A stretch of 21,107 bases of DNA from Candidatus Auribacterota bacterium (GCA_026392015.1 JAPLCW010000146.1:1-21107); one strand, 5' to 3'; positions 1-18,165 are shown, counted from the first letter of the stretch. Notes: generated by a model from the letters alone, not told the origin. Made by a program: numbers and translations.

Positions 1-446
1 TGCTGCAGCGGTACGGCTTGGTGCTTCCATCGACGCTTGCGACGGCGTAATGTCGCTGGGTTCAACCGCCGGATGCCGAAAACGGCACGTCCGGTGGTGT
101 GGGAGGGACTGCGGGCGAAATCCCGCAGCCCCGACCCGATCCATAATATGCTTTTCTGCAAGAGGTAACGATTGGATTCCTGCTGGAGTTTACCCTCGTG
201 AAAACGGGGACAGGAATGACTCGGAAAGCATGTAAATGTCTTTTAATTGGAAACGGGGGAAAGTCCTCCTCCCGCAACGGCGAATAATTGACTAAAACCT
301 TCACCCAGTAGGTGCGGCTGAGTTAAAAACAATAATTTTGCAGGGTCTTGATTTATCAAGCCCGCCAACGGGTCGGATAAAACCTGTCCTGAGCTTGCCG
401 AAGAATCCGACCCCTACATTATCCGCCATTCCGGGCTCCTCTTGTC

Positions 447-675
447 TATTGTACTACAGGCTAAATTCTGCTATCATCAAACAACACGAGTAGCGGGGTA
501 TATCGAGCAAATTAGTCTTCTGCATACAGATCCCGGATACGAAAAAAAACCTTAGAAAACTTAGCGGCGCAAAGCCACGGGTCTAATTCTCGAGATAGCG
601 GAACAAGATGCCCGGACTACCGAAGATCTCTAACGGAGATGAGAAGTAGTTCGGATTTTTTATTGAACGGAAGGG
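447..675 (+). promoter_or_regulatory. Conserved ~225-nt non-coding 'A' element, copy 1 (candidate cis-regulatory leader or small RNA ending in a terminator-like hairpin and T-run), directly upstream of the S8 protease gene
   Basis: About 80% identical to 11237-11458. The nested hairpin is conserved in both copies (outer CCGAAG/TTCGG, inner ATCTC-loop-GAGAT with a differing loop) and is followed by T6 (655-662). No ORF is shared between the copies. Confidence 0.4.
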
Positions 676-678
676 GCC

Positions 679-3246
679 ATGAAAGCATTAGGTGCGTGCT
701 GTTGGTTTATTGGGGTGGGGGCATTGTTTTCCGGATTGCCCATCAATGCCCATCTGGCGACCGCATCTTGTCCGATGTTCCACCGAGCTTCACGGCTCAC
801 CGACGTGAGCGCGCTGTATTCCGTGCCGTCGCAGGGAGATCTGCCCTTGAGCCACTCTATCGGGCGCGCCGCCGCATCTCTCCCGGCTGGGCCGAAGGCG
901 ATGGCGAAGCTCGCCCCCTGGGTGGTGGAGAATACAGAAGGCGGCGTAGAGGCCGAGTTTCTCGTCGTCCTCGCCGACCAGGCCGATCTCTCCGGGGCCG
1001 CTGATTTTTCGACCCGGGTCGAAAAGGGCATCTACGTGTTCGATACTCTCAGGGGAAAGGCGTATGCTACGCAGAAGGCTCTCCTCGACTGGCTCGCGGC
1101 GCGTGGGATCGAGCACCGCTCCTTTTACATCATCAATGCGGTCTGGGTGAAGGGGGATCGCGATATCGCCCTTGCCCTTGCCGGTCGCAGGGAGGTTTGG
1201 CGCATCGAGGGGAACCCCATGATCTATAACGACCTTCCCGCTCCCTCCGGGCGCAGTCAATCAAACAACCCTTCCGCCATCGAATCTAATATCACTTATG
1301 TCCGCGCCCCCGAGGTATGGGCGCTCGGACATACCGGGGAGGGGATCGTTGTGGGCGGCCAGGACACCGGATATCAATGGGATCATCCGGCACTGAAGGG
1401 TAAATATCGTGGATGGAACGGCTCATCTGCCGATCATGACTACAATTGGCATGACAGCATACACGCGGGGGGAGGGGTGTGCGGACCGAATTCGCCCGTT
1501 CCGTGCGATGATTACGGGCACGGTACGCATACAATGGGCACAGTCCTCGGCGATGACGGGGCGGGAAACCAGATCGGTATGGCGCCCGGCGCCAACTGGA
1601 TCGGGTGCAGGAACATGGACCAGGGCGCCGGGACCCCCGCCACATATATCGAGTGCTTCGAGTTCTTCCTTGCCCCGTATCCTGTGGGAGGAAGCCCTGC
1701 TCAGGGCGATCCATTGAAGGCGCCTGATGTGACGAACAACTCATGGGGCTGTCCGACGTCGGAAGGGTGCTCCTGGAACACGCTTCAGGCAGCCGTCGAA
1801 GCGCAGCGCGCCGCGGGCATCATGACGGTGGTATCGGTGGGAAATTATGGATCGTCCTGTTCCACGGTTCAGGATCCCCCCGCAATCTATGGTGCCTCCT
1901 ACTCGGTGGGCGCGCTGAACAAGGGGACGGATACGATCGCCTCTTTCAGCAGCCGGGGGCCGGTTACCGTGGACGGCAGCAATCGACGGAAACCGGATAT
2001 CTCGGCGCCCGGCACCAACATCCGTTCAAGCGTCCCTGGGGGTGGGTACGAGGGTGGATGGAGCGGCACCTCGATGGCGGGACCGCACGTTGCGGGTGCG
2101 GTGGCGCTCCTCTGGTCGGCGCGGCCGCTTGAGCTCAAGAACCAGATTGACTCGACCGAATATGTACTGGGCGAGTCGGCGACCCATATCTCATCTTCGG
2201 CTTGCTCGAGCAGCGGATGGCCGAACAATGTATTCGGCTATGGGCGCCTGGACGTAAGGGCGGCGATCGACCAGGAGACGCCGACAATGCCTCCTTCGCC
2301 CCAGATGTCTCCTACGTCGACACCTACGCCTACGGCTCCGGCGCCGACTGAGACGCCTATAGCGCCGGCAATAACGAGTATAACGCGCAATGAAGTTACA
2401 GGGGATATTATGATCTCCTGGACTGGCAGTTGCGATGTGGATATTTATTATGCAGTTGATTTGCAATCAGCATTTACGCTTGCGCAGAGCGGTGTCTTCG
2501 GAGGGTCATGGACAGATGATGGAATCCGAACCGGCGGACACCCGAATGGTGCGCGCGAGAGATATTACAAGATCGTCTGTGCCGGTACGTCACAGTACGC
2601 TTCGGATGCAGTGGGAATGTTCAGATATTCGCTCGCCTCAGGCTATAACTTGATATGTCTGCCGCTGATTCCCTACAACAGCGATATAGATGTGGTATTA
2701 GGGAGTCAACTGACGGAAGGGAGCCCTCTTACCGGAGACAAGATATACACACAGGATCCGAATTATGGGGATGAACTGCACTATGCGTATCTGTCTTCCA
2801 CATACCATGAATGGAAGGGCGCTTTAGATGAGGCGTCCGTTGTGCGGGAGAAAGGGTATCTCATGCAGATTGATGCGGGGCATACACGATTGACGCAATA
2901 TATCGTGGGGAAAGTACCTTCCGCGAGCGTGGGGATGCCTGAGTTTGCGATGGGTTATAATTTGATGGGGAACGTGTGGCCTGTCGATGTAACTTTTGAT
3001 GCGGGCAATTTGAAGGAGAGCGGGGCGAACGCGGGAAGTGCCCTGACAGGTGACCGTATCTATTCGCAGTCGAACAGCGGTTATGGCGGAAGCTTGGATT
3101 ACAGCTGGTTATCAAGCAGTGACGGATTGTGGCACGGCACGCTCACCGGGTTTGCGAGAGGCTACGGATGCTGGTATATCATCAACAGTGATAAGAGCCC
3201 ATTCAGCTGGGTGAATCTGAAGCTGTACAGCGAGCCGCCGTATTGA
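679..3246 (+). CDS. Secreted subtilisin-like serine protease (peptidase S8) with an I9-like propeptide, a Pro/Thr linker and a ~290-aa C-terminal domain of unknown family
   Basis: Catalytic-triad motifs are present: VGGQDTGY (Asp), HGTHTMGTV (His), GTSMAGPHVAGAVALL (Ser). The N-terminus has a hydrophobic signal-like segment. A PT-rich linker (PTMPPSPQMSPTSTPTPTAPAPTETP) lies at about 2281-2370. The stop is TGA. The start is uncertain (679, or an internal Met) because the spacing to a ribosome-binding site is poor. Confidence 0.88.
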   Translation: MKALGACCWFIGVGALFSGLPINAHLATASCPMFHRASRLTDVSALYSVPSQGDLPLSHSIGRAAASLPAGPKAMAKLAPWVVENTEGGVEAEFLVVLADQADLSGAADFSTRVEKGIYVFDTLRGKAYATQKALLDWLAARGIEHRSFYIINAVWVKGDRDIALALAGRREVWRIEGNPMIYNDLPAPSGRSQSNNPSAIESNITYVRAPEVWALGHTGEGIVVGGQDTGYQWDHPALKGKYRGWNGSSADHDYNWHDSIHAGGGVCGPNSPVPCDDYGHGTHTMGTVLGDDGAGNQIGMAPGANWIGCRNMDQGAGTPATYIECFEFFLAPYPVGGSPAQGDPLKAPDVTNNSWGCPTSEGCSWNTLQAAVEAQRAAGIMTVVSVGNYGSSCSTVQDPPAIYGASYSVGALNKGTDTIASFSSRGPVTVDGSNRRKPDISAPGTNIRSSVPGGGYEGGWSGTSMAGPHVAGAVALLWSARPLELKNQIDSTEYVLGESATHISSSACSSSGWPNNVFGYGRLDVRAAIDQETPTMPPSPQMSPTSTPTPTAPAPTETPIAPAITSITRNEVTGDIMISWTGSCDVDIYYAVDLQSAFTLAQSGVFGGSWTDDGIRTGGHPNGARERYYKIVCAGTSQYASDAVGMFRYSLASGYNLICLPLIPYNSDIDVVLGSQLTEGSPLTGDKIYTQDPNYGDELHYAYLSSTYHEWKGALDEASVVREKGYLMQIDAGHTRLTQYIVGKVPSASVGMPEFAMGYNLMGNVWPVDVTFDAGNLKESGANAGSALTGDRIYSQSNSGYGGSLDYSWLSSSDGLWHGTLTGFARGYGCWYIINSDKSPFSWVNLKLYSEPPY

Positions 3247-3946: not shown

Positions 3947-4780
3947 ATGAGAGCAACATTAGTGGTAGTTGCAAACGTGATGTTGATGGCGGGTTTGTGC
4001 GGCACGATGATAGCGGGGAGTATTGATTCACCCGGCGCGCCATCAGCGGGAAGCGGGATGTATACACTCTCTCAGATATATGATTACATGAACTCGGGGA
4101 TAGACGTAACACCTATACCAAGTTTCCAAGAACCCGCCGTGGCTCCCGGACCGACGATGAAGACCACGAAGCAGATTTACGAGGACATCAAGGCGAAATT
4201 TGCCCAGTGCAACGCGACTGCCGATGTTGTGATGCCGGGCTATACGTTTTTCTGCACGCAGCCGGGGAGTTGGGGAGTACAAACGGGAAACTATGTAACC
4301 CCAACCCCAACCTCAACGCCAACCCTAACCCCGACCATAACCCCCTCACCCACCCCAACTATAACTCCAACCTGCCCAACCGGTGACCCTTGGTATGTGC
4401 AATATGGACCGTGTGGGGAGGGTAAAGTGGTTCTGATAGGGAGCATGTACGTTGCCAAGTGGACAAATAATGAGGGCACCGCAAGCAACGAGAGAAAGGG
4501 TTGGCCCGCCGCCCGCCAATGGGCCACCGGACTAGACTGGTTAGGCAAGGACTCTGGATGGAGGCTTCCGACGGATATTGAAATAGCCTCCATATGTGAG
4601 GCCAAGTCTAGCCTGGGCGCGTACGAGGCTGAGACCCGCCCATATTACTGGTCCGACACCCAGCGCGACTCCGCGTCGGCCAACTGGATCGAGGACTTCT
4701 CTAGGCCTGTGGATTGCACCGTGCAGAGCGGCAACTGGGTCGACACTAACCGCGTGCGCGCCGTGCGTAATGCAATGTGA
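3947..4780 (+). CDS. Secreted modular paralog: N-module subtype II, PT linker, DUF1566/Lcl-C-terminal-like domain
   Basis: Signal peptide MRATLVVVANVMLMAGLCGTMIAG|S. Motifs GWRLPTDIEIASI..YYWSDT..VRAVRNAM. AAGGAGGG ribosome-binding site 6 nt upstream. Stop is TGA. Confidence 0.85.
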   Translation: MRATLVVVANVMLMAGLCGTMIAGSIDSPGAPSAGSGMYTLSQIYDYMNSGIDVTPIPSFQEPAVAPGPTMKTTKQIYEDIKAKFAQCNATADVVMPGYTFFCTQPGSWGVQTGNYVTPTPTSTPTLTPTITPSPTPTITPTCPTGDPWYVQYGPCGEGKVVLIGSMYVAKWTNNEGTASNERKGWPAARQWATGLDWLGKDSGWRLPTDIEIASICEAKSSLGAYEAETRPYYWSDTQRDSASANWIEDFSRPVDCTVQSGNWVDTNRVRAVRNAM

Positions 4781-4861
4781 ACAATTTGATCCATGCTGCC
4801 CTCGCGAAGGCGGCTGCAGCGGGTCAAGTTTGATTTCTCCGTTCGGTACGGCAGGTCGGCG

Positions 4862-4946
4862 GACGCGAAGCGCATGCCATCTGCGGAGATAACTCCGAAA
4901 TTTCTCTGGAGAAGATCCGTGATTTTATCGTAAACAAATAATGAGG
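4862..4946 (+). repeat. 'D' 3' element copy 1 (first hairpin degenerate; second hairpin and the ATTTTATCGTAAACAAATAATGAGG tail intact)
   Basis: Aligns to the consensus seen after each paralog. Confidence 0.6.
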
Positions 4947-5220
4947 AAAGAATAGAGCAGAATCAGGCAAATGATAAGGGCATATAAACGGAATAAGGCC
5001 GGGGCGATAGCATAATTTGCCGTCCATCTGAAATCATTGAGAAGGTACTAGACAAGATACACAAGGAGCTACAGAAGGCAGAGGTATGCTTCTGTGATAA
5101 GTGCCGTCCTTTGTTTCAGAAGTTTATCAAACGCTGGTTTAAGAGATACCCGGACAAGTAAGAGTTGGAAAGCCGGTTTATATATAAAGGGAAACAAGCA
5201 AACCAAAGGAGGGCGGAAAG
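4947..5220 (+). promoter_or_regulatory. 'U' 5' element copy 2 (small ORF lacks an ATG: ATA)
   Basis: Conserved sequence. TTTATATATA at 5177-5186. Ribosome-binding site AAGGAGGG at 5206-5213. Confidence 0.55.
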
Positions 5221-6033
5221 ATGAGAGCAACATTAGTGGTAATTTTAAGCGTGATGTTTGCGGCGGGTTTGTGCGGTACGGTGGTTGCGGGGAGTATTGA
5301 TTCACCCGGGTTGCCCACGGCGGGGAGCGGGATGTACACGCTCCAGAACCTGTATGACTACCTTACGAGCGGCACGGCGCTCATGGTGCAGACCAGTTTC
5401 CAGGAGCCCGCCTCGGGCCCCGGCTCGACGATGAAGAGCACGAAGGAGATCGGTGACGCGATCAAAGATAAGTTCAACCTGTGCGCTGCCACAACCGATA
5501 ATGTTGAACAGGGAGTGACTTTCTTCTGCACGCAGCCGGGAAGCTGGGGAGTTCAGACAGGAACATTAGTTGCGCTGCCGAGACCGACAGCAACCCCAAC
5601 CTCAACCGCAACCCCAACCGCAACCCCAACGCCGACGTGGGGCCAGACCAGATGCGAGGCGAAGGGCGGCTTGTGGGCACCGCTAAATGGCGGGCTAGTG
5701 GGGAATGGCTGCTGGTTCAAAGCGGCATTTCAGGAAAACTGCAGCGCGGCTTGTGGAGCCCTTACCCTAGGATGTGATACGAGACAGTGGAACGACAACG
5801 GGACTGTAACTTGCAGCATTATGAGGCAATTAGGGCCCAGTACTTGCTCATTCTGTCAGTCTGGGGGTTCTTCAATGGGCGACACATCATCTCCGGCGAT
5901 TGGGACGTCGTACTGGGAAGGGACTGGATGCATCTATCGGCCGGACTCAGTCAGCCAGGCATGCGATGCTACTATAAACACGAGTGACGCTAATTGGGGC
6001 AAACGGATCTGCGTCTGCAACCCTGAGCCGTAG
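5221..6033 (+). CDS. Secreted modular paralog: N-module subtype I, PT linker, Cys-rich C-terminal domain (type A)
   Basis: Signal peptide. SGMYTLQNLYDYLTSG..FFCTQPGSWGVQTG. (TPT)n linker. About 16 Cys in the C-terminal 130 aa. Stop is TAG. Confidence 0.85.
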   Translation: MRATLVVILSVMFAAGLCGTVVAGSIDSPGLPTAGSGMYTLQNLYDYLTSGTALMVQTSFQEPASGPGSTMKSTKEIGDAIKDKFNLCAATTDNVEQGVTFFCTQPGSWGVQTGTLVALPRPTATPTSTATPTATPTPTWGQTRCEAKGGLWAPLNGGLVGNGCWFKAAFQENCSAACGALTLGCDTRQWNDNGTVTCSIMRQLGPSTCSFCQSGGSSMGDTSSPAIGTSYWEGTGCIYRPDSVSQACDATINTSDANWGKRICVCNPEP

Positions 6034-6150
6034 ACTCTATCATCTGAATCATCCGCGGGTGGGCGGGCGCTATGCGCTTTCCCACCTGCGGAGATAACTC
6101 CGGATCTTCTCTGGAGAAGATCAGTGATTTTATCGTAAGTAAATAATAAG
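6034..6150 (+). repeat. 'D' 3' element copy 2: hairpin 1 (6053-6091, CCGCGGGTGGG..CCCACCTGCGG), hairpin 2 (6103-6122, GATCTTCTC-TG-GAGAAGATC), T-rich tail
   Basis: Perfect inverted repeats read directly from the sequence. Confidence 0.7.
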
Positions 6151-6258
6151 TTGGAGTAGGGCATAGCCAGAGAAGCAGGGAGAGTAAGATCAAGGCGAGG
6201 GCATAATTTTCGATGGTGGAATCAAGAGAGTGGGCTGTTGTTTACCGTAGCCGGGACT

Positions 6259-6284
6259 GTAGCCGATACTTAAGTATCGGCTAC
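6259..6284. repeat. Perfect 26-nt palindrome GTAGCCGATACTTAAGTATCGGCTAC in the spacer between D2 and U3
   Basis: The 11-nt arms are exact reverse complements around TTAA. A partial direct copy GTAGCCGGG lies just upstream. Confidence 0.6.
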
Positions 6285-6317
6285 AATATCTATCATAAAT
6301 CTTAAAAAGCCCACACT

Positions 6318-6541
6318 TTTTCTTGCATGATCTAATTTTCTGTCCGCCTAAAAGCATTGAGAAGGTACGAGACAAGATGCACAAGGAACCAGACAAGCTA
6401 GAGGCGTGCTTCTGTGATTAGTGCCATCCATTATTCCGCAGGTTTATCAAAAGCTGGTTTAAGAGATACCCGGACAAGTAGGAACTGGAAAGCCGGTTTA
6501 TATATTATAAGGAAACAATCAAACCAAAGGAGGGAATGAAG
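6318..6541 (+). promoter_or_regulatory. 'U' 5' element copy 3 (small ORF carries an in-frame TAG at 6419-6421, where other copies have AAG)
   Basis: Conserved sequence. TTTATATATTATAAGG box. Ribosome-binding site AAGGAGGGAATGAAG. Confidence 0.5.
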
Positions 6542-7345
6542 ATGAGAACAACATTAGTGGTAATTTTAAGTGTGATGTTAATGGCGGGTGTGTGCGGCAT
6601 GGTGGTTGCGGGGAGTATTGATTCCCCCGGCGCGCCTTCTGCGGGAAGCGGGATGTACACGCTCCAGAACCTGTATGATTACCTGACGAGCGGCACTGCG
6701 CTCACGGTGCAGACCAGTTTCCAGGAGCCCACGTCAGGTCCCGGCTCAACGATGAAAACCACAAAACAGATCGGGGATGCCATCGCAACATCATTTGCCT
6801 TGTGCGATGCGACTGCCGACAAAGTAGCGAGCGGCACGAGGTTCTTCAGCACGGTGCCGGGAAGCTGGGGTGTGCAGACGGGGACATTAGTTGTAGTGCC
6901 AACCCCAACCCCGACCATAACTCCCACCATAACCCCAACCCCGACCATAACCCCAACCGCAACGCCAACAGTCCCTGCATATTGTTCCTCCGCTAACGGC
7001 TACTGGGCCCCGAAGAATGATGGCTCGGGAGAGAGCGGGTGTTGGATTAAGGGGGCTGTCGCCACCAGCTGTAACACAGCGTGCAACTCAAAAGGGTTGA
7101 AATGCGACCAAGTGAATTTTAACGACCCCGAGTGTTCAATAATACCAAATATACCTGGAGCTTTTCCGTGCAGCACTTGCGGGGGGTCGCTGACATACGG
7201 CAACGCCGTGCAAGCGATCCAGGGGTGTGGAAGCTGTGGAGGGTCGGGGGCGTGTCGCGTGAATCCCGCCGGGACCGCGCAGGACTGTTCAGCAACCTTC
7301 ACCGACACTAACTGGTATCTGCTTTGCGTCTGTATTCCCAACTGA
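6542..7345 (+). CDS. Secreted modular paralog: N-module subtype I, PT linker, Cys-rich C-terminal domain (type A')
   Basis: The N-terminal 120 aa are about 85% identical to the 5221 gene and nearly identical to the 9104(-) gene. An alternative ATG lies at 6536. Stop is TGA. Confidence 0.85.
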   Translation: MRTTLVVILSVMLMAGVCGMVVAGSIDSPGAPSAGSGMYTLQNLYDYLTSGTALTVQTSFQEPTSGPGSTMKTTKQIGDAIATSFALCDATADKVASGTRFFSTVPGSWGVQTGTLVVVPTPTPTITPTITPTPTITPTATPTVPAYCSSANGYWAPKNDGSGESGCWIKGAVATSCNTACNSKGLKCDQVNFNDPECSIIPNIPGAFPCSTCGGSLTYGNAVQAIQGCGSCGGSGACRVNPAGTAQDCSATFTDTNWYLLCVCIPN

Positions 7346-7452
7346 CCAGATGATCATCCGCGGGTGGGAGGGCGTTGCGCGCCTTCCCACCTGCGGAGAT
7401 AACTCAGGATCTTCTCTGGAGAAGATAGGTGATTTTATCGCAAGCAATAATC
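7346..7452 (+). repeat. 'D' 3' element copy 3
   Basis: Both hairpins are present. The 3' flank GGAGTAGGGCATAGCCAGAGAAGC is shared with D2, which suggests recent duplication. Confidence 0.7.
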
Positions 7453-7881
7453 AATGGAAGTAGGGCATAGCCAGAGAAGCGAAGACCCTAAGCGAAGTCG
7501 AAGAGACCTTGTCGAAGTAAGGGCAAGGGTGGGGGGGCTCTATCCCCCAAGACTGACAGTAGTGACTCAATTTGGATGCCTTTGATTTGTAGAGGTTCGA
7601 CGAACTTGTCCTGAGAGAAGCCGAAGGATCAAGCCCCTACAACATAGAATAGTTATATTCTGTATGTAATAGAGACACTGCCAGACTGACCCAGTACCGC
7701 TATTCAGGACGCAGATGAACGCAGAGCACGCAGGTACAAAAATGGTTCGAAGTGAAAATCCCAAGTCTGAAAGCTGCTGTTTTGCTAATCTTAATCTGCG
7801 TTATCCGCGGAATCCGCGTCCCAATAAATTGGGCGGGAGTGGTGATTGGGCTATTTTGCACAATGAAAGGAAGGTGGCAAG

Positions 7882-8820
7882 ATGAAAAGGTTGATGACAG
7901 TAACGTTTGGTGTGATCCTTGCGTCAGGTGTGGGCGGGATGGCAGTCGGTGGGAACATTGACTCCTCTGGCGCGCCTTCATCGGGCAGCGGAATGTATTC
8001 GCTCTCTCAAATCTATGACTATCTGAACTCGGGGACAGCGGCAACCATTCCCGGAAGCTTTCAGGAACCCGGAGCAGCACCCAGTTCGACGCTGAAGACA
8101 ACGAAGGAAATCTACGACGACATCAAGGCGAAGTTGGACCTGTGCGCAACCACCACCGCAGCGCATGTGAAAGCGGGCCAGTTATTCTTCTGCACGCAGC
8201 CGGGGAGCTGGGGTGTCCAGACGGGAACGCTCATTGTACCGCCGACACCGACACCTACGATAACACCCACAATAACGCCATTGCCAATTCTCGCATCCTG
8301 TAAAGCCATTAAAACAGCGATTCCTGGAGCAGAAAGCGGAACCTATACCATTGACCCGGATGGTTCGGGAGGGAATGCCCCCTTCCAGGCTTACTGCGAC
8401 ATGACCTCTGATGGTGGAGGATGGACTCTGGTAGTCCGGGTGGTGAACGATAGAATCCACTGCAACTCATCTGCGGCCGGCACACTCACCTCGCAGACGC
8501 AGGCCAACTCTGCCAAATTATCGGATGCGGTCATTAACGAAATTTCGACCGACTACTACAGGTTTACATGCGGATCCGTTACCAACTGGTTCGATGCTAT
8601 TGAAAAGACATTCCAGGCCGATGGGACCGGCGATACGACTATCACAAAGGCAAAAGCGACCGGGATCGAGGGTACGTGGTGCTACGGCCCCACCGTAGCG
8701 AGCGAAGGGGGACTCCGCAACGCCGCATGTTCGCCGACAAGCGTTTATGGGCACGTATCACTCGGCGGATGCTATGATTCGACGATCTGGGGGGCATCGG
8801 GATATATGTTCGCGCGTTGA
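7882..8820 (+). CDS. Secreted modular paralog: N-module subtype II, PT linker, fibrinogen-related-domain (FReD)-like C-terminal domain
   Basis: SCKAIKTAIPGAESGTYTIDPDGSGGNAPFQAYCDMTSDGGGWTLVVR matches the signature of the N-terminal half of fibrinogen C-terminal domains. It has a different upstream region (no U element) with a GGAAGGTGG ribosome-binding site. Stop is TGA. Confidence 0.8.
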   Translation: MKRLMTVTFGVILASGVGGMAVGGNIDSSGAPSSGSGMYSLSQIYDYLNSGTAATIPGSFQEPGAAPSSTLKTTKEIYDDIKAKLDLCATTTAAHVKAGQLFFCTQPGSWGVQTGTLIVPPTPTPTITPTITPLPILASCKAIKTAIPGAESGTYTIDPDGSGGNAPFQAYCDMTSDGGGWTLVVRVVNDRIHCNSSAAGTLTSQTQANSAKLSDAVINEISTDYYRFTCGSVTNWFDAIEKTFQADGTGDTTITKAKATGIEGTWCYGPTVASEGGLRNAACSPTSVYGHVSLGGCYDSTIWGASGYMFAR

Positions 8821-8984: not shown

Positions 8985-9093
8985 CCCTGCCATCGGCGGA
9001 TTTAACCTCGGATCTTCTTACGCGAAGACTCGGAGTTATCTCCACCGGTGGGAAAGCGCAGAGCGCCCGCCCACCTGCGGATAGTAGTCATAT
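8985..9093 (-). repeat. 'D' 3' element copy 4 in reverse orientation, downstream of the minus-strand paralog
   Basis: The reverse complement matches the D consensus, including both hairpins. Confidence 0.65.
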
Positions 9094-9103
9094 TGTGTTT
9101 CCT

Positions 9104-10048
9104 CTACCTCGTGTAAAGGTACCCATCCTGGTCACCCGCAATACCCGGTAATATGCATCCGAAATAATCATCATATGCCCCATATATAGTCTTTGCCCCG
9201 GTGCCCGGTTGCCCATTACTCGTGACAAGAGCGGTACAATTTGATGGGTGGCAGTTGGATTCCGTTACGAATTCCCCAGTATAGGTCGTTTTATATTTCA
9301 TGATACCTGCTGTGCAGATACTTGTCGCATTAAAATCTTTGCCCGCTGCATCGAAGTAACACGACTTTATAGTGGTGTTGCCGCACGATAAACGATAGAT
9401 TTCGCTAGATATAGCATTTATTGACGCGTCAGACAGTTTCGCCGTGTCCGCCTGATCTGGCGCAGTTAGAGTGCCCACCGATGCTGTATCTATGTGCAGC
9501 CTGTTAGTTCCCTTCATCCTGACGACCAATGTCCACCCGCCGCCGTCATTGGTCATGTCGCAGTAGGCCGAGAAGGGAGCATTCCCACCGGAACCATCGG
9601 GGTCAATGGTGTAGGTGCCGTTGCCTGCAGAAGGAGTGGCCGTAAGAATTGCTTTACAGGATGCGTAAATACCATATGGGGTTGGAGTTGGCGGTACAAC
9701 TAATGTTCCCGTCTGCACCCCCCATCTTCCCGGCACCGTGCTGAAGAACTTCGTGCCACTCGCTACTTTGTCGGCAGTCGCGTCGCACATGGCAAATGAC
9801 GTCGCGACGGCATCACCGATCTGTTTTGTGGTTCTCATCGTTGATCCGGGCCCTGACGTGGGCTCCTGGAAACTGGTCTGCACCGTGAGCGCGGTGCCGC
9901 TCGTCAGGAAATCGTACAGGTTCTGGAGCGTATACATCCCGCTCCCCGCCGAAGGGGCCCCCGGAGAGTCAAGGCTCCCGGCAACAGCCACGCATGACAG
10001 GCCAACCATAAAAATCAAACTCAGAGCTACTGTGATTAACTTTTTCAT
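9104..10048 (-). CDS. Secreted modular paralog (inverted orientation): N-module subtype I, PT linker, FReD-like C-terminal domain; mosaic of the 6542-type N-terminus and 7882-type C-terminus
   Basis: Start chosen at MKKLITVALSLIFMVGLSCVAVAG (AAAGGA ribosome-binding site). YTIDPDGSGGNAPFSAYCDMTNDGGGWTLVVRM. Stop is TAG. Confidence 0.8.
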   Translation of the reverse strand: MKKLITVALSLIFMVGLSCVAVAGSLDSPGAPSAGSGMYTLQNLYDFLTSGTALTVQTSFQEPTSGPGSTMRTTKQIGDAVATSFAMCDATADKVASGTKFFSTVPGRWGVQTGTLVVPPTPTPYGIYASCKAILTATPSAGNGTYTIDPDGSGGNAPFSAYCDMTNDGGGWTLVVRMKGTNRLHIDTASVGTLTAPDQADTAKLSDASINAISSEIYRLSCGNTTIKSCYFDAAGKDFNATSICTAGIMKYKTTYTGEFVTESNCHPSNCTALVTSNGQPGTGAKTIYGAYDDYFGCILPGIAGDQDGYLYTR

Positions 10049-10104
10049 TTTGGTACCAATCCTTTCTTGATTCATTTTGAATTTGATAAAAGCGCGATTG
10101 CCAC

Positions 10105-10121
10105 GTCCCGCTCAGCGGGAC
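10105..10121 (-). terminator. Hairpin GTCCCGC-TCA-GCGGGAC downstream of the 10146-10967(-) gene; on the minus strand it is followed by a ..GCGCTTTTATC T-run or TATA-like box
   Basis: 7-bp perfect stem. T-rich tract 13 nt downstream on the minus strand. Confidence 0.4.
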
Positions 10122-10145
10122 TACAGCACTCGCGATGCAAAAGGA

Positions 10146-10967
10146 TCAGATACCTACCGGCGGGGCGCGGATGGGAGAAAGTTTGGCAAGACTGCTTCTA
10201 TAAACCGGCATATCGCAACACCGGATACGTGCACAGGAATCATCTTTTCCAATCCTTGGCAAAAAGACTGTCCAGGCATCATTGTCATATCTCTCGTGGC
10301 TGTTGCTCATCCCTGTTACGGAAACACAGCCGCCGGATATTTCAGAATCATCCGCGCCGCCCGAAAGCCTGCTCCTTGATTCATCCCCGATCTCTTTCCA
10401 AGGACCGGGATCTGTTTTCGCGAGATACTGCACGGTCCGGCCGGGCCCGAAATGCATCCATCCTGCGTTCTCTCCCCACGCATAGCCGTCAAACTGGCCG
10501 GTCTCATCCAGGTATACTCGCGAATGACTTGTGCGGAAGCTGACCCAGCCCGTAACTTCGGACCAGGCAAATCCTGACAGCTTGCCATGTCCATCGTTGT
10601 TGACTCCCCAGTCAGAGGAGCCCCGGTTGGAGTAGTGTTCCCCGTTCAGAGGATGGCCTTCGCCGAGACTCACCCAGCCGCAGTTCTCAAGCCATATCCA
10701 CCCCACCAATATATTCGAGCCGATCTTTAAGTCTGCATGTGTCGTCCTGAGATTTACCCACCCTGCGTTCTCCCCCCAGATCACGTCATAACCCGCTACG
10801 ATTCTGCCAGTCTTCGGTATGGCAACACCCGATTGCGGAATGCTGTCACTTCTTTCCGAGTTGGGGAAGAATGGAAAATCATAGCACTGAGGAAAGGGAG
10901 GATGTGCGGGTATGGCATTGGCAGTGGAGGCTGCGAAGAGGGCTAAGGCAAAGATAATTAGAGTCAT
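10146..10967 (-). CDS. Secreted repeat protein with tandem ~25-30-aa repeats carrying a G-W-[VIM]-x-[LF] motif (GENAGWVNL, ENCGWVSLG, AWSEVTGWVSF, AWGENAGWMHFG); family not assigned
   Basis: N-terminal signal peptide MTLIIFALALFAASTANA. Internal repeats are visible in the translation. The overlapping plus-strand ORFs lack features. Confidence 0.65.
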   Translation of the reverse strand: MTLIIFALALFAASTANAIPAHPPFPQCYDFPFFPNSERSDSIPQSGVAIPKTGRIVAGYDVIWGENAGWVNLRTTHADLKIGSNILVGWIWLENCGWVSLGEGHPLNGEHYSNRGSSDWGVNNDGHGKLSGFAWSEVTGWVSFRTSHSRVYLDETGQFDGYAWGENAGWMHFGPGRTVQYLAKTDPGPWKEIGDESRSRLSGGADDSEISGGCVSVTGMSNSHERYDNDAWTVFLPRIGKDDSCARIRCCDMPVYRSSLAKLSPIRAPPVGI

Positions 10968-11236
10968 AATATTTCCCGCAGGGGTGATAAAATCAACACG
11001 ACTACAATAACCCTTGATACATATACCTGCATATTCTGTGCCAACTTTACAATTTTTCCTTCATTAGTGAAAAATAGTTGTAATTGCTACGAGGCGAAGT
11101 AGTTGCAACTATATGCGCAAAGATACAGATTTTAAATGCATCCTAAAAAGCCCAATCTGCATACTTAGTTTATACCTCCGAGAGCCAAAAGTGTAAACTT
11201 ACTTTATGTCCGCGCTTGTACATGTCCGCGCTTGTA

Positions 11237-11458
11237 TATTGTAATACCAGCTAAATTCTGCTATCATCGAGAAACGAGTAGCGGGTTATATCGAGGAGAG
11301 TGATCGCTTACATACAGATCCGAAAAAGCAAACCTTAGAAAACTTAGGGGCACAAAGCCACGGGTCTAAATCCCGCCGTAGCGGGACAAGATGGCCGGAC
11401 TGCCGAAGATCTCTAATGAGATAAGAGGTAGTTCGGCTTTTTTATAGTTGGGGAAGGA
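11237..11458 (+). promoter_or_regulatory. Conserved 'A' element copy 2 (see 447-675)
   Basis: About 80% identical to copy 1. Hairpin GCCGAAG..ATCTC-TAAT-GAGAT..TTCGGC followed by T6. Lies about 340 nt upstream of the 11798 gene. Confidence 0.4.
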
Positions 11459-11797
11459 TATACTCCTGTAGTGCGTTTCCGGGGTCAAATCTTTATCCTT
11501 GAATTTTAGAAGGCAGGACAGCTTTCCGGCAGTTTGATGTAAATTGATTCTGGCGCAAAGTGCTGGGTCAGCGTGAGAAAGAGTGTAGCTTAAGTTTGTG
11601 CTTCATACTATTCAAGCCGCGGAGGTACGGAAAGGGCGGGGATGCAACGTGACATTGTTATTGCATTCTTTGCGCTTGATTCTGGCTACCCCCTGCTTCT
11701 CGGGAGGCAGGTCGGGCAGGCCCAAAGGGCATGGTTTCTGCGGTGGAATATATCATTCACCACTATTGCGGCCAAAAGAGAAAGGAGAGTTGAAAAG

Positions 11798-12598
11798 ATG
11801 AAAAAGTTGATGACGTTAGTGTTAGCTTTGATGTTTGCGGTCGGCCTGGCCGGTATGGCCATAGCCGGCAGTCTTGATTCACCCGGCGCCCCATCAGGCG
11901 GAAGCGGTATGTATACGCTCTCGCAAGTATATGATTACTTGAACTCGGGAATAAAGGCAACACCTGTCTCCGGTTTTCAGGAACCCGGCGCAGCCCCTGG
12001 TCCGACGATGAAGAGCACAAGGGAGATCTACGAGAGCATCGAGGCCAAATTTGACCAGTGCCCCGCCACTACTGCTAATGTGGAGTCAGGAGTGAAGTTC
12101 TTCTGCCATGTATCGGGAAGATGGGGAGTGCAGACAGGAACCGGGTTAATGCAGCCAACCCCAACCATAACCCCAACCATAACCCAAACCCCAACCATAA
12201 CCCCAACACCAGCCCCAACCATGACCTCAACCCCATGGGGATATCCTGATGTAGTCGTGATAGGTGGTATGTATGTTGCGAGCGATAAGGATGGTCTTGG
12301 ATGTGCGGGAGGTGGATCGAAAAATTGGACTGAGGCCGCATCCTGGGCAGAGGGCTTGGAGTGGTTAGGGGCGACGGACTGGAGAATGCCTACTGGGGGT
12401 GCGGGAGGAGAGCTGTCGACGATATGTGAGTACAGAAGTAGTTTAGGATCTTATTATACAAACTATTATTGGTCTGCCACTGAACTTTCCACATCGCTTG
12501 CGTGGGCAGTTTATACCTCTGAGGATCAATGGATGTGTGTTGTCTTCAATAACGATAAAAACGGACCATACCATGTACGTGCGGTTCGTACCAGATAA
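11798..12598 (+). CDS. Secreted modular paralog: N-module subtype II, PT linker, DUF1566/Lcl-C-terminal-like domain
   Basis: The real start is at MKKLMTLVLALMFAVGLAGMAIAG (ribosome-binding site GAAAGGAGAG); the track ORF from 11642 is an upstream extension. DWRMPT..ELSTICE..YYWSATE..VRAVRTR. Stop is TAA. Confidence 0.85.
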   Translation: MKKLMTLVLALMFAVGLAGMAIAGSLDSPGAPSGGSGMYTLSQVYDYLNSGIKATPVSGFQEPGAAPGPTMKSTREIYESIEAKFDQCPATTANVESGVKFFCHVSGRWGVQTGTGLMQPTPTITPTITQTPTITPTPAPTMTSTPWGYPDVVVIGGMYVASDKDGLGCAGGGSKNWTEAASWAEGLEWLGATDWRMPTGGAGGELSTICEYRSSLGSYYTNYYWSATELSTSLAWAVYTSEDQWMCVVFNNDKNGPYHVRAVRTR

Positions 12599-12721
12599 TA
12601 GATCATGCGGATCAAATTCGCAGTCCTTCCCCAATGGGGATTCAGAATTTGTGCAAGTCATAACAATCATTCATTTTCAATTTATTTTTTGGGTTATGGT
12701 TATATTGCATGACAACATGAT

Positions 12722-12836
12722 TTGACTATCCGCAGTTGGGCGGGCGTTGCGCGCTTTCCCATCTGCGGAGATAACTCCGGATCTTCTCTGGAGAAGATCA
12801 GTGATTTTATGTAAGCAAATAATGAGTGGGAGTAAG
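12722..12836 (+). repeat. 'D' 3' element copy 5
   Basis: Both hairpins are present (CCGCAGTTGGG..CCCATCTGCGG shows G-T and T-G changes that keep pairing with wobbles). Confidence 0.7.
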
Positions 12837-12884
12837 GCGGTCTTGTGGTGAAAGTTGAGCTGAGTATCCGGGCGGCGGCGATTC

Positions 12885-13040
12885 CCGGCGATACGGAAAA
12901 GTCCGGGCTCACCCAATACAAGGTACCCCCCCGACCAAGTGGGGTATATGTAATATGACAACGGTGATATACACATACTCTCTTACTCAAACACCGGGGG
13001 CAAGGACAAAAGGTATGGGAAAAGGAAGTGATGCGATGAG
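12885..13040 (+). repeat. 'E' element copy 1 (~150-nt conserved non-coding repeat: ACGGAAAAG.CCGGGCTCACCCAATACAAGGTACCCCCCCGACCAAG.GGGGTATATGTAATATG.CAACGGTGATATACAC...CAGACACCGGGGG..GATGGACAAAAGGTA.TGGGAAAGGAAG)
   Basis: Three copies: here, 18005-18165 and 19245-19380. Confidence 0.5.
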
Positions 13041-13058
13041 CTATCCATTTCGCTCTGT

Positions 13059-13099
13059 CTCAGGATGGCCCCGCCATTCGGCGGGCCAAGGATCCTGAG
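13059..13099 (+). promoter_or_regulatory. Long imperfect hairpin (CTCAGGAT-GGCCCCGCC-ATTC-GGCGGGCC-AAGG-ATCCTGAG) abutting a TTTATATA box, upstream of the 13208 gene
   Basis: Reverse-complement arms read from the sequence. TTTATATA at 13100-13107. Confidence 0.4.
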
Positions 13100-13207
13100 T
13101 TTATATACACATGGGCACTCGTGTCCAATTAGTAATAAAGGATCACCGATAATTTGGACGGGAGTGGGAAACAGGCCGGATGCGCACAATGAGAGGAAGG
13201 TGGAAAG

Positions 13208-14236
13208 ATGAAAAGGTTGATGACGTTAGTGTTAGGTTTGCTGTTCGCGATTGGGTTGGGCGGAATGGCCGTTGCCGGGAGTATTGATTCAACGGGTGCT
13301 CCCTCATCAGGGAGCGGGATGTACACGCTCCAGAATCTGTATGACTATCTGACGAGCGGCGCGGCGCTGACGGTGCAGACAAGTTTCCAGGAGCCCACGT
13401 CAGGGCCCGGATCAACGATGAATAGCACGAAGGAGATCGGTGACACGATCGCGGGTAAGTTCAGCCAGTGCAATGTAACCGCTGCCCATGTTGAGTCAGG
13501 CTGGACGTTCTTCTGCACGCAGTCGGGAAGCTGGGGAGTGCAGACGGGTACCGGGTTAATGCAGCCAACCATAACCCCAACCCCAACCATAACCCCAACC
13601 CCAACCATAAATATCGCATCCTGTAAAACCATTAAAACTGCAATTCCTGCTTCAGTCGACGGCGTCTACACCATTGACCCCGATGGTCAGGGGGTCGGGA
13701 GTGATCCCTTCTCGGCCTACTGCGACATGACCACCGGCGGCGGCGGCTGGACCCTTGCCGCGTTTAGAGGTTCTGGCGTAACTAATGGTGACACTTTCTC
13801 TAAACATGGGGCAGTCGTGACTAATTTCGGGGAATCTCAGTCATCCGGAGATTGGTCACTCGATATATGCAACAACAAAATCAACGAAGGTGCCGACTAC
13901 AGCGAAATGGTAATAACTTCAGGTATAACAGAAAGCCATATTATAAATGGATTTACGTACGCATGGTTTTTCTCTTTTAATGGGACATACAAGATTAGCG
14001 TGGACTGGGGCACCATCAATGAAGTTGGGACTTACGGTTGGAAATGTAGCGCTGGCGAAGGGTATACATCATCGAGCGCATGGCATAGTGCGGCGAATAC
14101 CTGGAGAACCGATGCAGGGGGGGGGCAGTGGATTACGGGGATGGAGACTGGTACAGGAGGTATTCTGTATTGGACAGTTTGTAGTGGTGCGGCTCCTCAG
14201 GGTTGGGAGCATCCGGGATATTTCTGGGTTCGCTGA
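13208..14236 (+). CDS. Secreted modular paralog: N-module subtype I, PT linker, FReD-like C-terminal domain (longer C-terminal extension)
   Basis: SCKTIKTAIPASVDGVYTIDPDGQGVGSDPFSAYCDMTTGGGGWTLAAFR. GGAAGGTGG ribosome-binding site. Stop is TGA. Confidence 0.82.
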   Translation: MKRLMTLVLGLLFAIGLGGMAVAGSIDSTGAPSSGSGMYTLQNLYDYLTSGAALTVQTSFQEPTSGPGSTMNSTKEIGDTIAGKFSQCNVTAAHVESGWTFFCTQSGSWGVQTGTGLMQPTITPTPTITPTPTINIASCKTIKTAIPASVDGVYTIDPDGQGVGSDPFSAYCDMTTGGGGWTLAAFRGSGVTNGDTFSKHGAVVTNFGESQSSGDWSLDICNNKINEGADYSEMVITSGITESHIINGFTYAWFFSFNGTYKISVDWGTINEVGTYGWKCSAGEGYTSSSAWHSAANTWRTDAGGGQWITGMETGTGGILYWTVCSGAAPQGWEHPGYFWVR

Positions 14237-14237
14237 T

Positions 14238-14382
14238 ATGGCCGCAGATTTGATCCGTTTTAGCCGTTGCCGGCAAGGGAGTGCAGTTTTCGAATTGCTC
14301 CCTGTCGGCGTCGGAGATAACTCCGGATCTTCTCTGGAGAAGATCAGTGATTTTATCGTAAACAAATAATGAGGGAAGGATA
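14238..14382 (+). repeat. 'D' 3' element copy 6 (hairpin 1 diverged, hairpin 2 and tail intact)
   Basis: Alignment to the consensus. Confidence 0.6.
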
Positions 14383-14626
14383 GAGCAGGATCACGGAATA
14401 GTACAGGGGCGATAGCATAATTTGCCGTCCACCTGAAAACATTGAGAAGGCACTAGACAAGATGCACAAGGAGCTAGAGAATGCAGAGGTATGCTTCGGT
14501 GATAAGTGCCGTCCTTTGTTTCATAGGTTTATCAAACGCTGGTTTAAGAGATACCCGGACAAGTAGGAGTTGGAGAGCCGGTTTATATATTACAAGGAAA
14601 TAATCAAACCAAAGGGGGGAGTACAG
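14383..14626 (+). promoter_or_regulatory. 'U' 5' element copy 4 (small-ORF peptide NIEKALDKMHKELENAEVCFGDKCRPLFHRFIKRWFKRYPDK; no ATG)
   Basis: Conserved sequence. TTTATATATTACAAGG. Ribosome-binding site AAGGGGGG. Confidence 0.55.
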
Positions 14627-15625
14627 ATGAGAACAACATTAGTGGTGGTTGTAAGCGTGATGTTTGCGGTCGGCCTGAGCGGAATGGCAGTTGCCGGGAG
14701 CATGGATTCCCCCGGCGCCCCATCATTGGGAAGCGGGATGTACACGCTCCAGAACCTGTACGACTACCTGACGAGCGGCGACGCGCTCAGCGTTGCCGGA
14801 GATTTCCAGGAGCCGAGCGCAGCTCCGGGCTCAACGATGAAGAGCACAAAGGAGATCGGCGACGCGATCAAAGCGTTATTCGAGCAGTGCCCCGTCATGG
14901 CTGACAACGTTGAGTCGGGCGTAAAATTTTTCTGCACCCAGCCGGGAAGCTGGGGAGTGCGGACGGGGACATTGGTTGCGCTGCCGAGGCCGACAGCAAC
15001 ACCAACGGTAACGCCGACAGCAACGTGGGCCTGCGGATCAACATTTACGGATTCAAGGGACGGCAAAGTATACAGCACCGTCCTGATCGGATCCCAATGC
15101 TGGATGAAGCAGAACCTGAATGTGGGAACAAGAATTGACACGGCGACCGATCAAGGTACCAGTTGTTCTTCAATACAGAAGTACTGCCGTGATAACCTCG
15201 AATCCGGGTGCGAAACATATGGAGGTCATTACCAGATGCCACAGGCTATGTGTGGATCAACAGAACCAGGCACCCAGGGCATATGCTTCGATGGATGGCA
15301 TGTTGCTACAGAAGCTGAGTGGTGTACATTACTCCACAGTTTAGATTCCACAGTGGTGTGTGGTTCGTGGGAAGGTCGCATCGGTACTAATGTAGGTACT
15401 AAATTGATGTTGTCTGGCCCAAATGATTTCTCAGAGATACTAGCGGGGTTACGGATAGCGGGGGGCTCGTTCGTCAACCTGGGTTCGGGTTATTTTCCAA
15501 GTTCGAATTTAAGGGGGGACGGCATGCATCGGCACATCGAAAACGATCCCCCAACGGGAGCTAATGTAGGAATACAAACCTGCCCACTGTCATTTGGCGA
15601 ATCCATCAGATGCCTCAGGGACTGA
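14627..15625 (+). CDS. Secreted modular paralog: N-module subtype I, PT linker, Fibrobacter-succinogenes-major-paralogous (FISUMP)-like C-terminal domain
   Basis: CGSTFTDSRDGKVYSTVLIGSQCWMKQNLNVGT matches the characteristic FISUMP opening motif. Stop is TGA. Confidence 0.82.
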   Translation: MRTTLVVVVSVMFAVGLSGMAVAGSMDSPGAPSLGSGMYTLQNLYDYLTSGDALSVAGDFQEPSAAPGSTMKSTKEIGDAIKALFEQCPVMADNVESGVKFFCTQPGSWGVRTGTLVALPRPTATPTVTPTATWACGSTFTDSRDGKVYSTVLIGSQCWMKQNLNVGTRIDTATDQGTSCSSIQKYCRDNLESGCETYGGHYQMPQAMCGSTEPGTQGICFDGWHVATEAEWCTLLHSLDSTVVCGSWEGRIGTNVGTKLMLSGPNDFSEILAGLRIAGGSFVNLGSGYFPSSNLRGDGMHRHIENDPPTGANVGIQTCPLSFGESIRCLRD

Positions 15626-15636
15626 GATTCGACAAT

Positions 15637-15742
15637 TTGACTATCTGCGGGTGGGCGGGCGCTGTGCGCTTTCCCACCTGCGGCGATAACTCCGGATCTT
15701 CTCTGGAGAAGATCAGTGATTTTATCGTAAACAAATAATGAG
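15637..15742 (+). repeat. 'D' 3' element copy 7
   Basis: Both hairpins perfect. Confidence 0.7.
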
Positions 15743-16018
15743 CGGAGGCTAGGCGCAGAATCAGGAAAGAAATAGGAGCATATAAACGGAATAAGGCAGG
15801 CGCTACAGCATGATAACCGACCACCTGACGACATTGAGAAGGCACTGGACAAGCTCCACAAGGAACTACAGAAGGCAGAGGTATGCTTCTGTGACAAGTG
15901 CCGTTCTTTGTTTCATAGGTTTGTTAAACGCTGGTTTAAGAAGTACCCGGACAAGTAGGAGCTGGAAAGCCGGTTTATGTATAATAAGGAAACAATCAAA
16001 CCAAAGGAGGGAGTAAAG
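15743..16018 (+). promoter_or_regulatory. 'U' 5' element copy 5 (small ORF out of frame relative to its ATG)
   Basis: Conserved sequence, TATA-like boxes, ribosome-binding site AAGGAGGG. Confidence 0.55.
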
Positions 16019-16807
16019 ATGAGAACAACATTAGTGGTGGTTGTAAGCGTGATGTTTTCGGTCGGGATGGCCGGAATGGCCGTTGCCGGGAGTATTGATT
16101 CACCCGGTGCGCCATCAGCGGGAAGCGGGATGTACTCACTCACGCAGGTCTATGACTACCTGAATTCGGGGATAGAGGTAACGCCTGTCCCAAGTTTTCA
16201 GGAACCAAGCTCAGCCCCTGGCTCGACGATGAAGACGCTGAAGGATATCTACGATGACCTCAGGGCGAAGTATATCCAATGCACTGTGACAGCTGACAAG
16301 GTTAAGTCAGGGGAGAAGTTCTTTTGCACGCAGCCGGGAAGATGGGGAGTGCAGACAGGGACGGCGTATATACCCCCAACCCCAACCCCAACCTCAATCC
16401 CAACTCCAACCCCAACAAAAACCTTTTACGAGCAATACGGCCCGCCACCTGGGGAGGATAAAGTGGTGCACATAGGGAGCATGTATGTTGCCAAGTGGAC
16501 GGATAATGAAGGCACCGCTATGAACGATGGAAAAATCTGGACCGTTGCCTGTTCCTGGGGTACCGATCTAGTATGGTTGGGTAAGGATGACTGGAGGCTG
16601 CCGACGAAAGATGAGCTAATCAGTATATGTACGAATAGGGGGAGCTTAGGCGCATATCACGATGTGGTTAGATATTGGTCCTCCACTGCATATGATGAAA
16701 GTTTCGCGTGGTCAACGTGGTTTTCCGTTGCTGATGGTTGTGCAACCGATCATGATGCCGATAAACCATCCGGGCGGTTTATCCGAGCAGTCCGGAATGC
16801 CGATTAA
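16019..16807 (+). CDS. Secreted modular paralog: N-module subtype II, PT linker, DUF1566/Lcl-C-terminal-like domain
   Basis: DWRLPTKDELISICTNRGSLGAY..RYWSSTAYD..IRAVRNAD. Stop is TAA. Confidence 0.85.
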   Translation: MRTTLVVVVSVMFSVGMAGMAVAGSIDSPGAPSAGSGMYSLTQVYDYLNSGIEVTPVPSFQEPSSAPGSTMKTLKDIYDDLRAKYIQCTVTADKVKSGEKFFCTQPGRWGVQTGTAYIPPTPTPTSIPTPTPTKTFYEQYGPPPGEDKVVHIGSMYVAKWTDNEGTAMNDGKIWTVACSWGTDLVWLGKDDWRLPTKDELISICTNRGSLGAYHDVVRYWSSTAYDESFAWSTWFSVADGCATDHDADKPSGRFIRAVRNAD

Positions 16808-16817
16808 CTGGCGTTTG

Positions 16818-16928
16818 ACATTTTGACTATTCGCAGGTGGGCGGGCGCTGCGCGATTTCCCACCTGCGGAGGTAACTCTTGATCTTCTCTGGAGAAGATC
16901 AGTGATTTTATCGTAAACAAATAATGAG
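16818..16928 (+). repeat. 'D' 3' element copy 8
   Basis: Both hairpins present. Confidence 0.7.
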
Positions 16929-18004: not shown

Positions 18005-18165
18005 CCCGGCGAGACGGAAAAGACCGGGCTCACCCAATACAAGGTACCCCCCCGACCAAGCGGGGTATATGTAATATGGCAACGGTGATATACACTCTCG
18101 CAGTCAGACACCGGGGGTGGATGGACAAAAGGTACTGGGAAAGGAAGCAGATATGCAGAGGATCG
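18005..18165 (+). repeat. 'E' element copy 2
   Basis: About 85% identical to 12885-13040. Confidence 0.5.

Follow-up and report, generated by a model that had tools for sequence, protein, structure and literature searches.

The window, a 21,107-nt stretch of DNA from Candidatus Auribacterota bacterium (GCA_026392015.1 JAPLCW010000146.1:1-21107), carries one non-coding unit in two places, once at the start of a gene for an S8 serine protease and once within an array of paralogous genes for secreted proteins. The locus raises the question of what this unit is, whether its two copies are in the same condition, and how it came to stand before two different genes. Candidatus Aureabacteria is the phylum Candidatus Auribacterota, which belongs to the PVC group.

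Extent and layout of the repeated unit

Exactly two copies of the unit were found in the window, at 441-668 (copy 1) and 11231-11450 (copy 2), both on the + strand. Using blastn, the segment 430-690 matched 11231-11445 at 80.9% over 225 nt (E 1e-55), with no third copy above noise in the window, and the MAFFT alignment gave a column identity of 83%; the figure of about 80% identity between 447-675 and 11237-11458 given by the first-pass annotation was therefore sound. The left edge of the similarity is abrupt (441/11231) and the right edge lies near 668/11450, just past the T-run, beyond which the identity falls to the background level of 48%. Each copy, as delimited by alignment and blastn, comprises a whole cassette of promoter, leader, aptamer and terminator (81-83% identical overall), the identity being 84% in the promoter, 74% in the leader, 81% in the aptamer and 80% in the 3' platform. 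A 16-nt tandem duplication (ATGTCCGCGCTTGTAC / ATGTCCGCGCTTGTAT) occupies 11206-11237, right at the 5' boundary of copy 2, where it overlaps the beginning of the conserved region.

Mechanically called TTG ORFs open at equivalent positions of the two copies (442-555, 37 aa; 11232-11303, 23 aa), their starts falling within the -35 box. Past residue 12 the two ORFs part by a frameshift, on which ground a shared small ORF was rejected as the function of the element; the first-pass annotation had likewise noted that the copies share no ORF.

A sigma-70-like promoter is predicted at the 5' edge of each cassette. The copy 2 site (11239-11267, + strand) consists of TTGTAA (11239-11244), a 17-nt spacer and TATCAT (11262-11267) with TG upstream of the -10 box, and scored 9/12 in the consensus scan. 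Its homolog in copy 1 (449-477, + strand), read from the sequence, consists of TTGTAC (449-454), 17 nt and TGc-TATCAT, the -10 hexamer occupying 472-477; it was missing from the scan list because its -35 hexamer is weaker than that of copy 2. Predicted transcription starts are near 484 for copy 1 and near 11274 for copy 2. Since the scan returned 18 hits against 18.7 in shuffled sequence, i.e. no enrichment, the promoter call rests on conservation and position. The copies become similar 8 nt ahead of the -35 box and, as the gene upstream of copy 2 is divergent and starts at 10967, a promoter must lie somewhere in 10968-11316. The promoter regions (448-477 and 11238-11267) also appear promoter-like on the - strand (ATGATA, 18 nt, TACAAT); in copy 2 this second site faces the divergent gene starting at 10967, and the cassette might be bidirectional.

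The 5' leader is about 45 nt long (copy 1, 485-526, + strand, containing the block ACGAGUAGCGGGGUAUAUCGAG) and includes the conserved block ACGAGUAGCGGGKUAUAUCGAG. Folding of both copies gave no hairpin and no leader-aptamer pairing common to the two, the pairings found being copy-specific (GUAGCGGG of the copy 2 leader with the distal hairpin; UAUAUCGAG of the copy 1 leader with CUCGAGAUA). A metagenome scan with the conserved leader block GAGTAGCGGGNTATATCGAG returned only two chance coding matches (L120, L121). A role of its own for the 45-nt leader was rejected, its pairings differing by copy with none in common, and it is treated here as a plain 5' UTR.

Aptamer, terminator and predicted switching

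In an Rfam scan, 11317-11407 (+ strand) of copy 2 scored 57.6 bits (E 4e-9) as a c-di-GMP-I riboswitch aptamer (RF01051), the match spanning the entire model (positions 1-87). At a permissive threshold, 537-624 of copy 1 matched the same family at 31.0 bits (E 0.012). The gathering score of RF01051 is 35 bits, so that copy 2 passes by 22 bits and copy 1 falls short of it, though 81% identical to copy 2. The riboswitch-like leader ending in a terminator or attenuator proposed by the first-pass annotation could thus be given a family, c-di-GMP-I (GEMM-I). Of the sequence blocks quoted there, CCTTAGAAAACTTAG is the tetraloop hairpin and CAAAGCCACGGGTCTAA the junction core of the aptamer. This 17-nt core was found as an exact match in at least 119 riboswitch loci of a species-representative genome collection, in Bacillota, Thermodesulfobacteriota, Chloroflexota, Synergistota and others; these loci have nothing but the aptamer in common with the window.

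Pocket positions were mapped via the junction descriptions of Gs1761 and Vc2 (PMC6274999, PMC6140456), and a set of 122 comparators was taken from the core scan of the genome collection. In the Gs1761 structure, J1/2 is formed by A9-A14, the helix by C15-G40, J2/3 by A41 and J1/3 by G74-C75 (PMC6274999); the equivalent of Vc2 G20 is Gs1761 A14 (PMC6140456). In copy 2 the P1 strands lie at 11316-11320 (AGAUC) and 11408-11412 (GAUCU). A20 is A11327, the pair G21:C46 is 11328:11353, C22·A45 is a mismatch at 11329·11352, A47 is A11354 and C92 is c11403. A11327 lies directly 5' of G11328:C11353 and 27 nt ahead of the junction A11354, which is the spacing from A14 to A41 in Gs1761. In the copy 1 aptamer (537-624, + strand), G21 and C22 are absent, with a run of eight A at 542-549 instead; G45, C46 and A47 are found at 569, 570 and 571, and C92 is c620. 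The specificity position (Vc2 G20) is A in both copies, in copy 1 by aligned position, and the equivalents of A47 and C92 are kept, giving an 'AAC' pocket. Canonical model pairs number 19 in copy 2 and 16 in copy 1.

At position 20, 93 of the comparators have G, 24 have A, four have C and one has U, and the 22:45 pair is canonical in all 122 (C-G 119, U-A 2, U-G 1). Both copies have the tetraloop AAAA, not GNRA, with a receptor region CUAA...AAGAU, variants which a minority of the comparators share (AAAA in L023, L065, L075 and L086; AAGAU in L003, L007, L043 and L114); the CCGGAC strand of copy 2 is also present in some of them. Judged by these alignments, copy 2 is, C22·A45 aside, within the natural variation of the comparators, and it is a c-di-GMP-I (GEMM-I) member with the A20 signature of GEMM-Ib. 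It resembles Vc2 and the RF01051 family in its three-helix junction with the core GCAAA...CAAAGCCACGGGUCUAA...GCCGG..CC, in the intercalating A47 and the ligand-pairing C92, in its position in a 5' UTR and, as regards the family, in downstream genes of environment, membrane and adhesion type. It differs from Vc2 and the family in having A in place of G at position 20, and from the family in the C·A at 22:45 and the AAAA loop of copy 2, in the sub-threshold copy 1 without the 21:46 and 22:45 pairs, and in its host, an uncultivated Auribacterota (PVC group) metagenome-assembled genome.

Both copies end in an intrinsic terminator of the form CCGGACU(R)CC-GAAG-AUCUC-loop-GAGAU-RAGA-GGUAGUUCGG-U6. 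That of copy 1 (612-661, + strand; stem 612-654, U6 656-661; -19.8 kcal/mol) is present in the minimum-free-energy fold, and that of copy 2 (11393-11443, + strand; stem 11393-11438, T-run 11438-11443; -28.0 kcal/mol) dominates it, the copy 2 fold having a z-score of -4.3. A nested hairpin followed by T6 had already been recognized in both copies, as had the retention of its inner stem in spite of differing loops (UAACG versus UAAU); both observations stood, the hairpin proving larger than first described.

In both copies one RNA segment serves as the 3' half of the aptamer and as the 5' half of the terminator. The terminator 5' strand (CCGGACU-R-CC-GAAG-AUCUC) takes in three aptamer parts: from the distal helix its 3' strand (CCGGACU), from the junction the G-C with the C92-equivalent C that pairs with the ligand, and from P1 its 3' strand. 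In the predicted terminator fold of copy 2 c11403 is paired with g11428. According to the folding model, aptamer and terminator are mutually exclusive. A comparable arrangement is known from the pilM cGAMP riboswitch of G. metallireducens, an ON switch whose terminator sequesters the ligand-pairing C75 via G102 (PMC9262584); there, as here, the aptamer loses its 3' strand to the terminator, and with it the C that pairs with the ligand (C75-G102 in pilM, c11403-g11428 in copy 2). The GSU1761 riboswitch has also been interpreted as acting by ligand-stabilised antitermination (PMC6456294), and class I c-di-GMP riboswitches can be either ON or OFF (PMC6366702).

With a promoter-like site upstream, a strand-sharing terminator and co-directional genes downstream, the layout is cis-regulatory. 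We consider it likely that each copy heads a transcription unit, being made up of a sigma-70-like promoter, a leader, a GEMM-I aptamer and a terminator and working as a ligand-ON switch, with copy 2 live and copy 1 diverged. Each unit would begin with its promoter and short leader, followed by the cyclic-dinucleotide aptamer and the intrinsic terminator. Ligand bound to the nascent aptamer would hold the shared strand, and RNA polymerase would read through into the gene (ON); without ligand the far more stable terminator would form and transcription would stop at the U6 tract (OFF). Because the strand is shared and a ligand-held aptamer would keep it, ligand should block termination, and we infer ON polarity by analogy with the Geobacter switches. 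The counterpoint to this polarity is that the terminator is favoured by 31 kcal/mol (-54.9 kcal/mol for the copy 2 terminator fold, -23.5 kcal/mol with the aptamer enforced), which makes the ON reading dependent on co-transcriptional kinetics. As the terminator fold is so much the more stable, the aptamer could win only during transcription and only with ligand; the switch would be kinetic.

Candidate ligands and the condition of each copy

The nucleotide at position 20 is a known determinant of specificity, G going with c-di-GMP and A with cGAMP or dual binding (PMC6140456, PMC9481103, PMC6456294). The Geobacter A20G mutant switches to c-di-GMP (PMC6140456, PMC6456294, PMC9481103). Since A occupies this position in both copies, the pocket could accept 3',3'-cGAMP besides c-di-GMP. 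Of the two, c-di-GMP is the somewhat favoured candidate for the cellular ligand and cGAMP a less likely but serious one. No cyclase genes were found among the large ORFs of the window.

A switch of GEMM-Ib type, selective for 3',3'-cGAMP in vivo as in Geobacter, is the alternative that survives best, and we regard it as possible but tentative. It would be in keeping with A20 (11327 in copy 2, the aligned A in copy 1) as the known determinant, with the retained equivalents of A47 and C92 in the 'AAC' pocket, and with a terminator layout of the ON type as in pilM and pgcA. Set against this, A20 by itself confers only dual binding in the Vc2 G20A mutant (c-di-GMP 53 nM, cGAMP 120 nM; PMC6140456), several natural A20 aptamers are bispecific (PMC6140456), and the 24 comparators with A20 are mostly from Bacillota without a known cGAMP link. 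From the comparator counts, A20 is a common natural variant and no proof of cGAMP sensing. The likeness to the Geobacter GEMM-Ib switches (Gs1761/pgcA, pilM) is one of sequence at the specificity position, cGAMP selectivity being putative here. The present host, moreover, is not Geobacter or a deltaproteobacterium, and the genes concerned encode a protease and lectin-like proteins in place of the cytochromes and pili of the Geobacter regulons. Were the switch selective for cGAMP, cGAMP signalling would be placed in Auribacterota, a phylum of the PVC group.

An unlikely extension of this alternative is that A20 and C22·A45 together mark a functional variant sensing 3',3'-cGAMP or another cyclic dinucleotide in Auribacterota. 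In that event cGAMP-riboswitch signalling would reach the PVC group and be tied there to a secreted protease and very large lectin-like surface families.

Our preferred reading remains that of a ligand-ON switch, probably working in copy 2 and probably impaired in copy 1. Copy 1 has lost both closing pairs of the pocket-adjacent helix (21:46 and 22:45), the 3' partners G569 and C570 being still in place; the loss of both pairs was found in 0 of the 122 comparators. In addition, the base pair at the foot of its tetraloop hairpin is broken (C·C), and seven additional nucleotides lie between the original P1 5' strand and the core. At its tip the distal hairpin is altered, with pairing still possible through a register shift, and the junction core nucleotides and the lower distal helix are identical in both copies. 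Copy 1 would thus respond to ligand poorly or not at all, leaving a promoter and a leaky, weaker terminator, and the best explanation for it is a diverged duplicate recruited ahead of the S8 protease. The suggestion of the first-pass annotation that the element co-regulates the protease and the array is therefore plausible, but it is weakened by the sub-threshold score of copy 1 and the loss of its two pocket-adjacent pairs.

Copy 2 might also be impaired, given C·A at 22:45 and the AAAA tetraloop. Carried further, this would make both copies decaying pseudo-riboswitches, each a promoter with a leaky terminator and no ligand response, which we judge to be improbable. The two copies do bear separate lesions in the same pocket-adjacent helix (C22·A45 in copy 2; loss of G21/C22 in copy 1), neither of which occurs in the 122 comparators. 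The cassette is missing from related contigs, of which one has a truncated GEMM-I relic (L132, 1831-1888), and of the 16 c-di-GMP riboswitches predicted in C. difficile only 11 are functional (PMC6366702). Against such decay in copy 2 stand its score, 22 bits over the family threshold with the full model, the identity of the junction, the lower distal helix and the aptamer-terminator overlap between copies otherwise diverged by about 19%, and the fact that a C·A pair is tolerable as a wobble.

Origin of the cassette and its downstream genes

The closest ortholog of the protease (P0001, on the JGI contigs L122 and L123) is 87% identical in amino acids and 90% in nucleotides. The L122 ortholog is homologous only from window position 767 onward, its signal peptide and upstream region being different, and no riboswitch was found upstream of the ortholog on L122 or L123. 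The cassette and the new 5' end of the gene are therefore lineage-specific at the protease locus. Comparison of window 679-766 with L122 1378-1460 gave no relationship for the first ~30 protease codons (signal peptide), and by this alignment the 5' end of the protease gene has been replaced together with its upstream region. The evidence of conservation covers one genome; approximately 85 kb of related contigs (L122-L135), gathered via proteins homologous to the protease and to both paralog families, contained no full copy. The relic at L132 1831-1888 (- strand) lacks the distal helix, has G at position 20 and scored 39 bits on RF03167 (threshold 59), and it suggests turnover of such switches in the lineage. 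A convergent Lcl_C gene has its 3' end facing this relic; on the relic's strand, some 250 nt farther upstream (L132 ~2120-2165, -), a segment resembles the 5' half of a tRNA (GGAGGGGTGGCTGAGCGGTCGAAAGCGCCGGTCTTGAAAACC).

The simplest origin of the cassette would be segmental duplication within a region rich in tandem repeats. Its spread as a mobile promoter cassette, MITE- or insertion-sequence-like, is very improbable. The idea of a mobile promoter module, also raised by the first-pass annotation, holds in so far as the promoter was copied with the riboswitch and terminator as one cassette; in its favour, the orthologous protease locus lacks the cassette, and the 16-nt tandem duplication adjoins copy 2 on its 5' side. 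A mobile element was nevertheless rejected, terminal inverted repeats and target-site duplication both being absent at the cassette flanks. The cassette occurs just twice in 21 kb and has no full copy in the ~85 kb of related contigs, and tandem or segmental gene duplication in the region is a simpler source of the second copy.

Copy 1 ends 18 nt before the ATG at 679 of the S8 serine protease gene (679-3246, + strand; Peptidase_S8, E 5e-37), which it had been said to abut; a ribosome-binding site read from the sequence (GGAAGGGG, 669-676; site and start codon 669-681, + strand) directly follows. Past the copy 2 terminator there is a similar purine-rich stretch without a start codon. The first gene past copy 2 encodes the DUF1566/Lcl_C protein NTZ78_09350 (11798-12598, + strand; 100% protein match), and the start of this gene at 11798 agrees with the distance of about 340 nt given earlier. 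The spacer (11459-11797) has no similarity elsewhere in the window by blastn and is unique there; it was rejected as a remnant of the protease 5' end or as another intergenic repeat. The consensus scan found no other promoter-like hit on the + strand of the spacer.

Two blocks of co-directional + strand genes follow the two copies. In the copy 1 block the S8 protease is succeeded by four paralog genes (3947-8820), and the copy 2 block runs from 11798 to ~17931 with paralogs for secreted lectin-like proteins (DUF1566/Lcl_C, fibrinogen-like); between the blocks two paralogs lie on the - strand (9104-10967). Altogether some eleven paralogous genes for small secreted proteins occupy 3947-8820, 9104-10967 (-) and 11798-17931. 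Their products share an N-terminal part of ~115 aa and linkers rich in Asn, Pro, His and Thr (AACCCCAACC-type repeats), and vary in their C-terminal domains (Lcl_C/DUF1566, fibrinogen-like/COLFI or none known). With the proteins of 11798-12598 and 10146-10967 as queries, over 40 NTZ78 paralogs were found in either search, spread over many contigs of this genome, and relatives of the paralog proteins were also found with LamG and Fib_succ_major C-termini.

The small-RNA option of the first-pass annotation, with the short terminated transcript of ~170 nt as the product, acting in trans from two loci, is very improbable: each copy has its own promoter and strong terminator and copy 2 is 340 nt from the next gene, but copy 1 adjoins a ribosome-binding site and start codon, the family matched by the element is one of cis-acting riboswitches, no complementarity to a candidate target was found, and the leader is without conservation elsewhere.

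As a cis-acting switch before a protease and adhesin-like genes, the cassette fits the context of known c-di-GMP riboswitch regulons, of which zmpI, CD2831 and Bc2-cap are examples (PMC6366702). Bc2 of B. thuringiensis is a class I ON switch ahead of a collagen-adhesion gene; in C. difficile, a class I switch goes with the zmpI protease and class II switches go with the adhesins that are its substrates (PMC6366702). The present cassette resembles Bc2 and the C. difficile zmpI and CD2831/CD3246 systems in that termination-type switches stand before secreted proteases and adhesin-like surface proteins, and C. difficile in that some predicted copies are non-functional. In C. difficile, however, the polarities are opposed, class I turning the protease OFF and class II the adhesins ON, whereas here there is one class with one predicted ON polarity.

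Earlier descriptions exist for the riboswitch class, which is long known, for A20 as a variant and for a terminator design of the ON type. What is new is modest: the phylum of the host, the copying of the cassette as a whole, the lesions next to the pocket, which are unusual, and the gene families downstream. It offers a first lead to function in a candidate phylum about which little is known, suggesting that in this Auribacterota genome cyclic-dinucleotide signalling would turn on a secreted S8 protease and members of two hugely expanded families of secreted lectin-like proteins. It is also a clean natural case of a promoter-riboswitch-terminator cassette duplicated whole to a new gene, where the copy is apparently decaying. 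Such duplication and decay are relevant to the growth and shrinkage of riboswitch regulons.

Further repeated or structured elements were seen in the window. A two-copy intergenic element of ~150 nt (12884-13035 and 18005-18155) has a 91-nt core that is 96% identical, against 60-88% in the surrounding repeats, and gave no Rfam match at E up to 1. After each paralog gene there is a conserved element of ~80-130 nt (4877-4928, 6052-6133, 7357-7438 and 8990-9090, with further sites at 12729-12810, 14305-14356, 15644-15725 and 16830-16911). It is composed of three hairpins, a long GC-rich one (CCGCGGGTGGG...CCCACCTGCGG), CGGAGATAACTCCG, and GATCTTCTCTGGAGAAGATC followed by GATTTTAT. This element could be a terminator, or it may simply have been duplicated along with the genes; should it end transcription, each riboswitch would control only the first gene of its block. 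At 64-140 (+ strand) the window matched domains V-VI of a group II intron (RF00029, 43.7 bits, gathering score 40). The contig appears to start within this intron, the 3' end of which lies ~300 nt upstream of copy 1.
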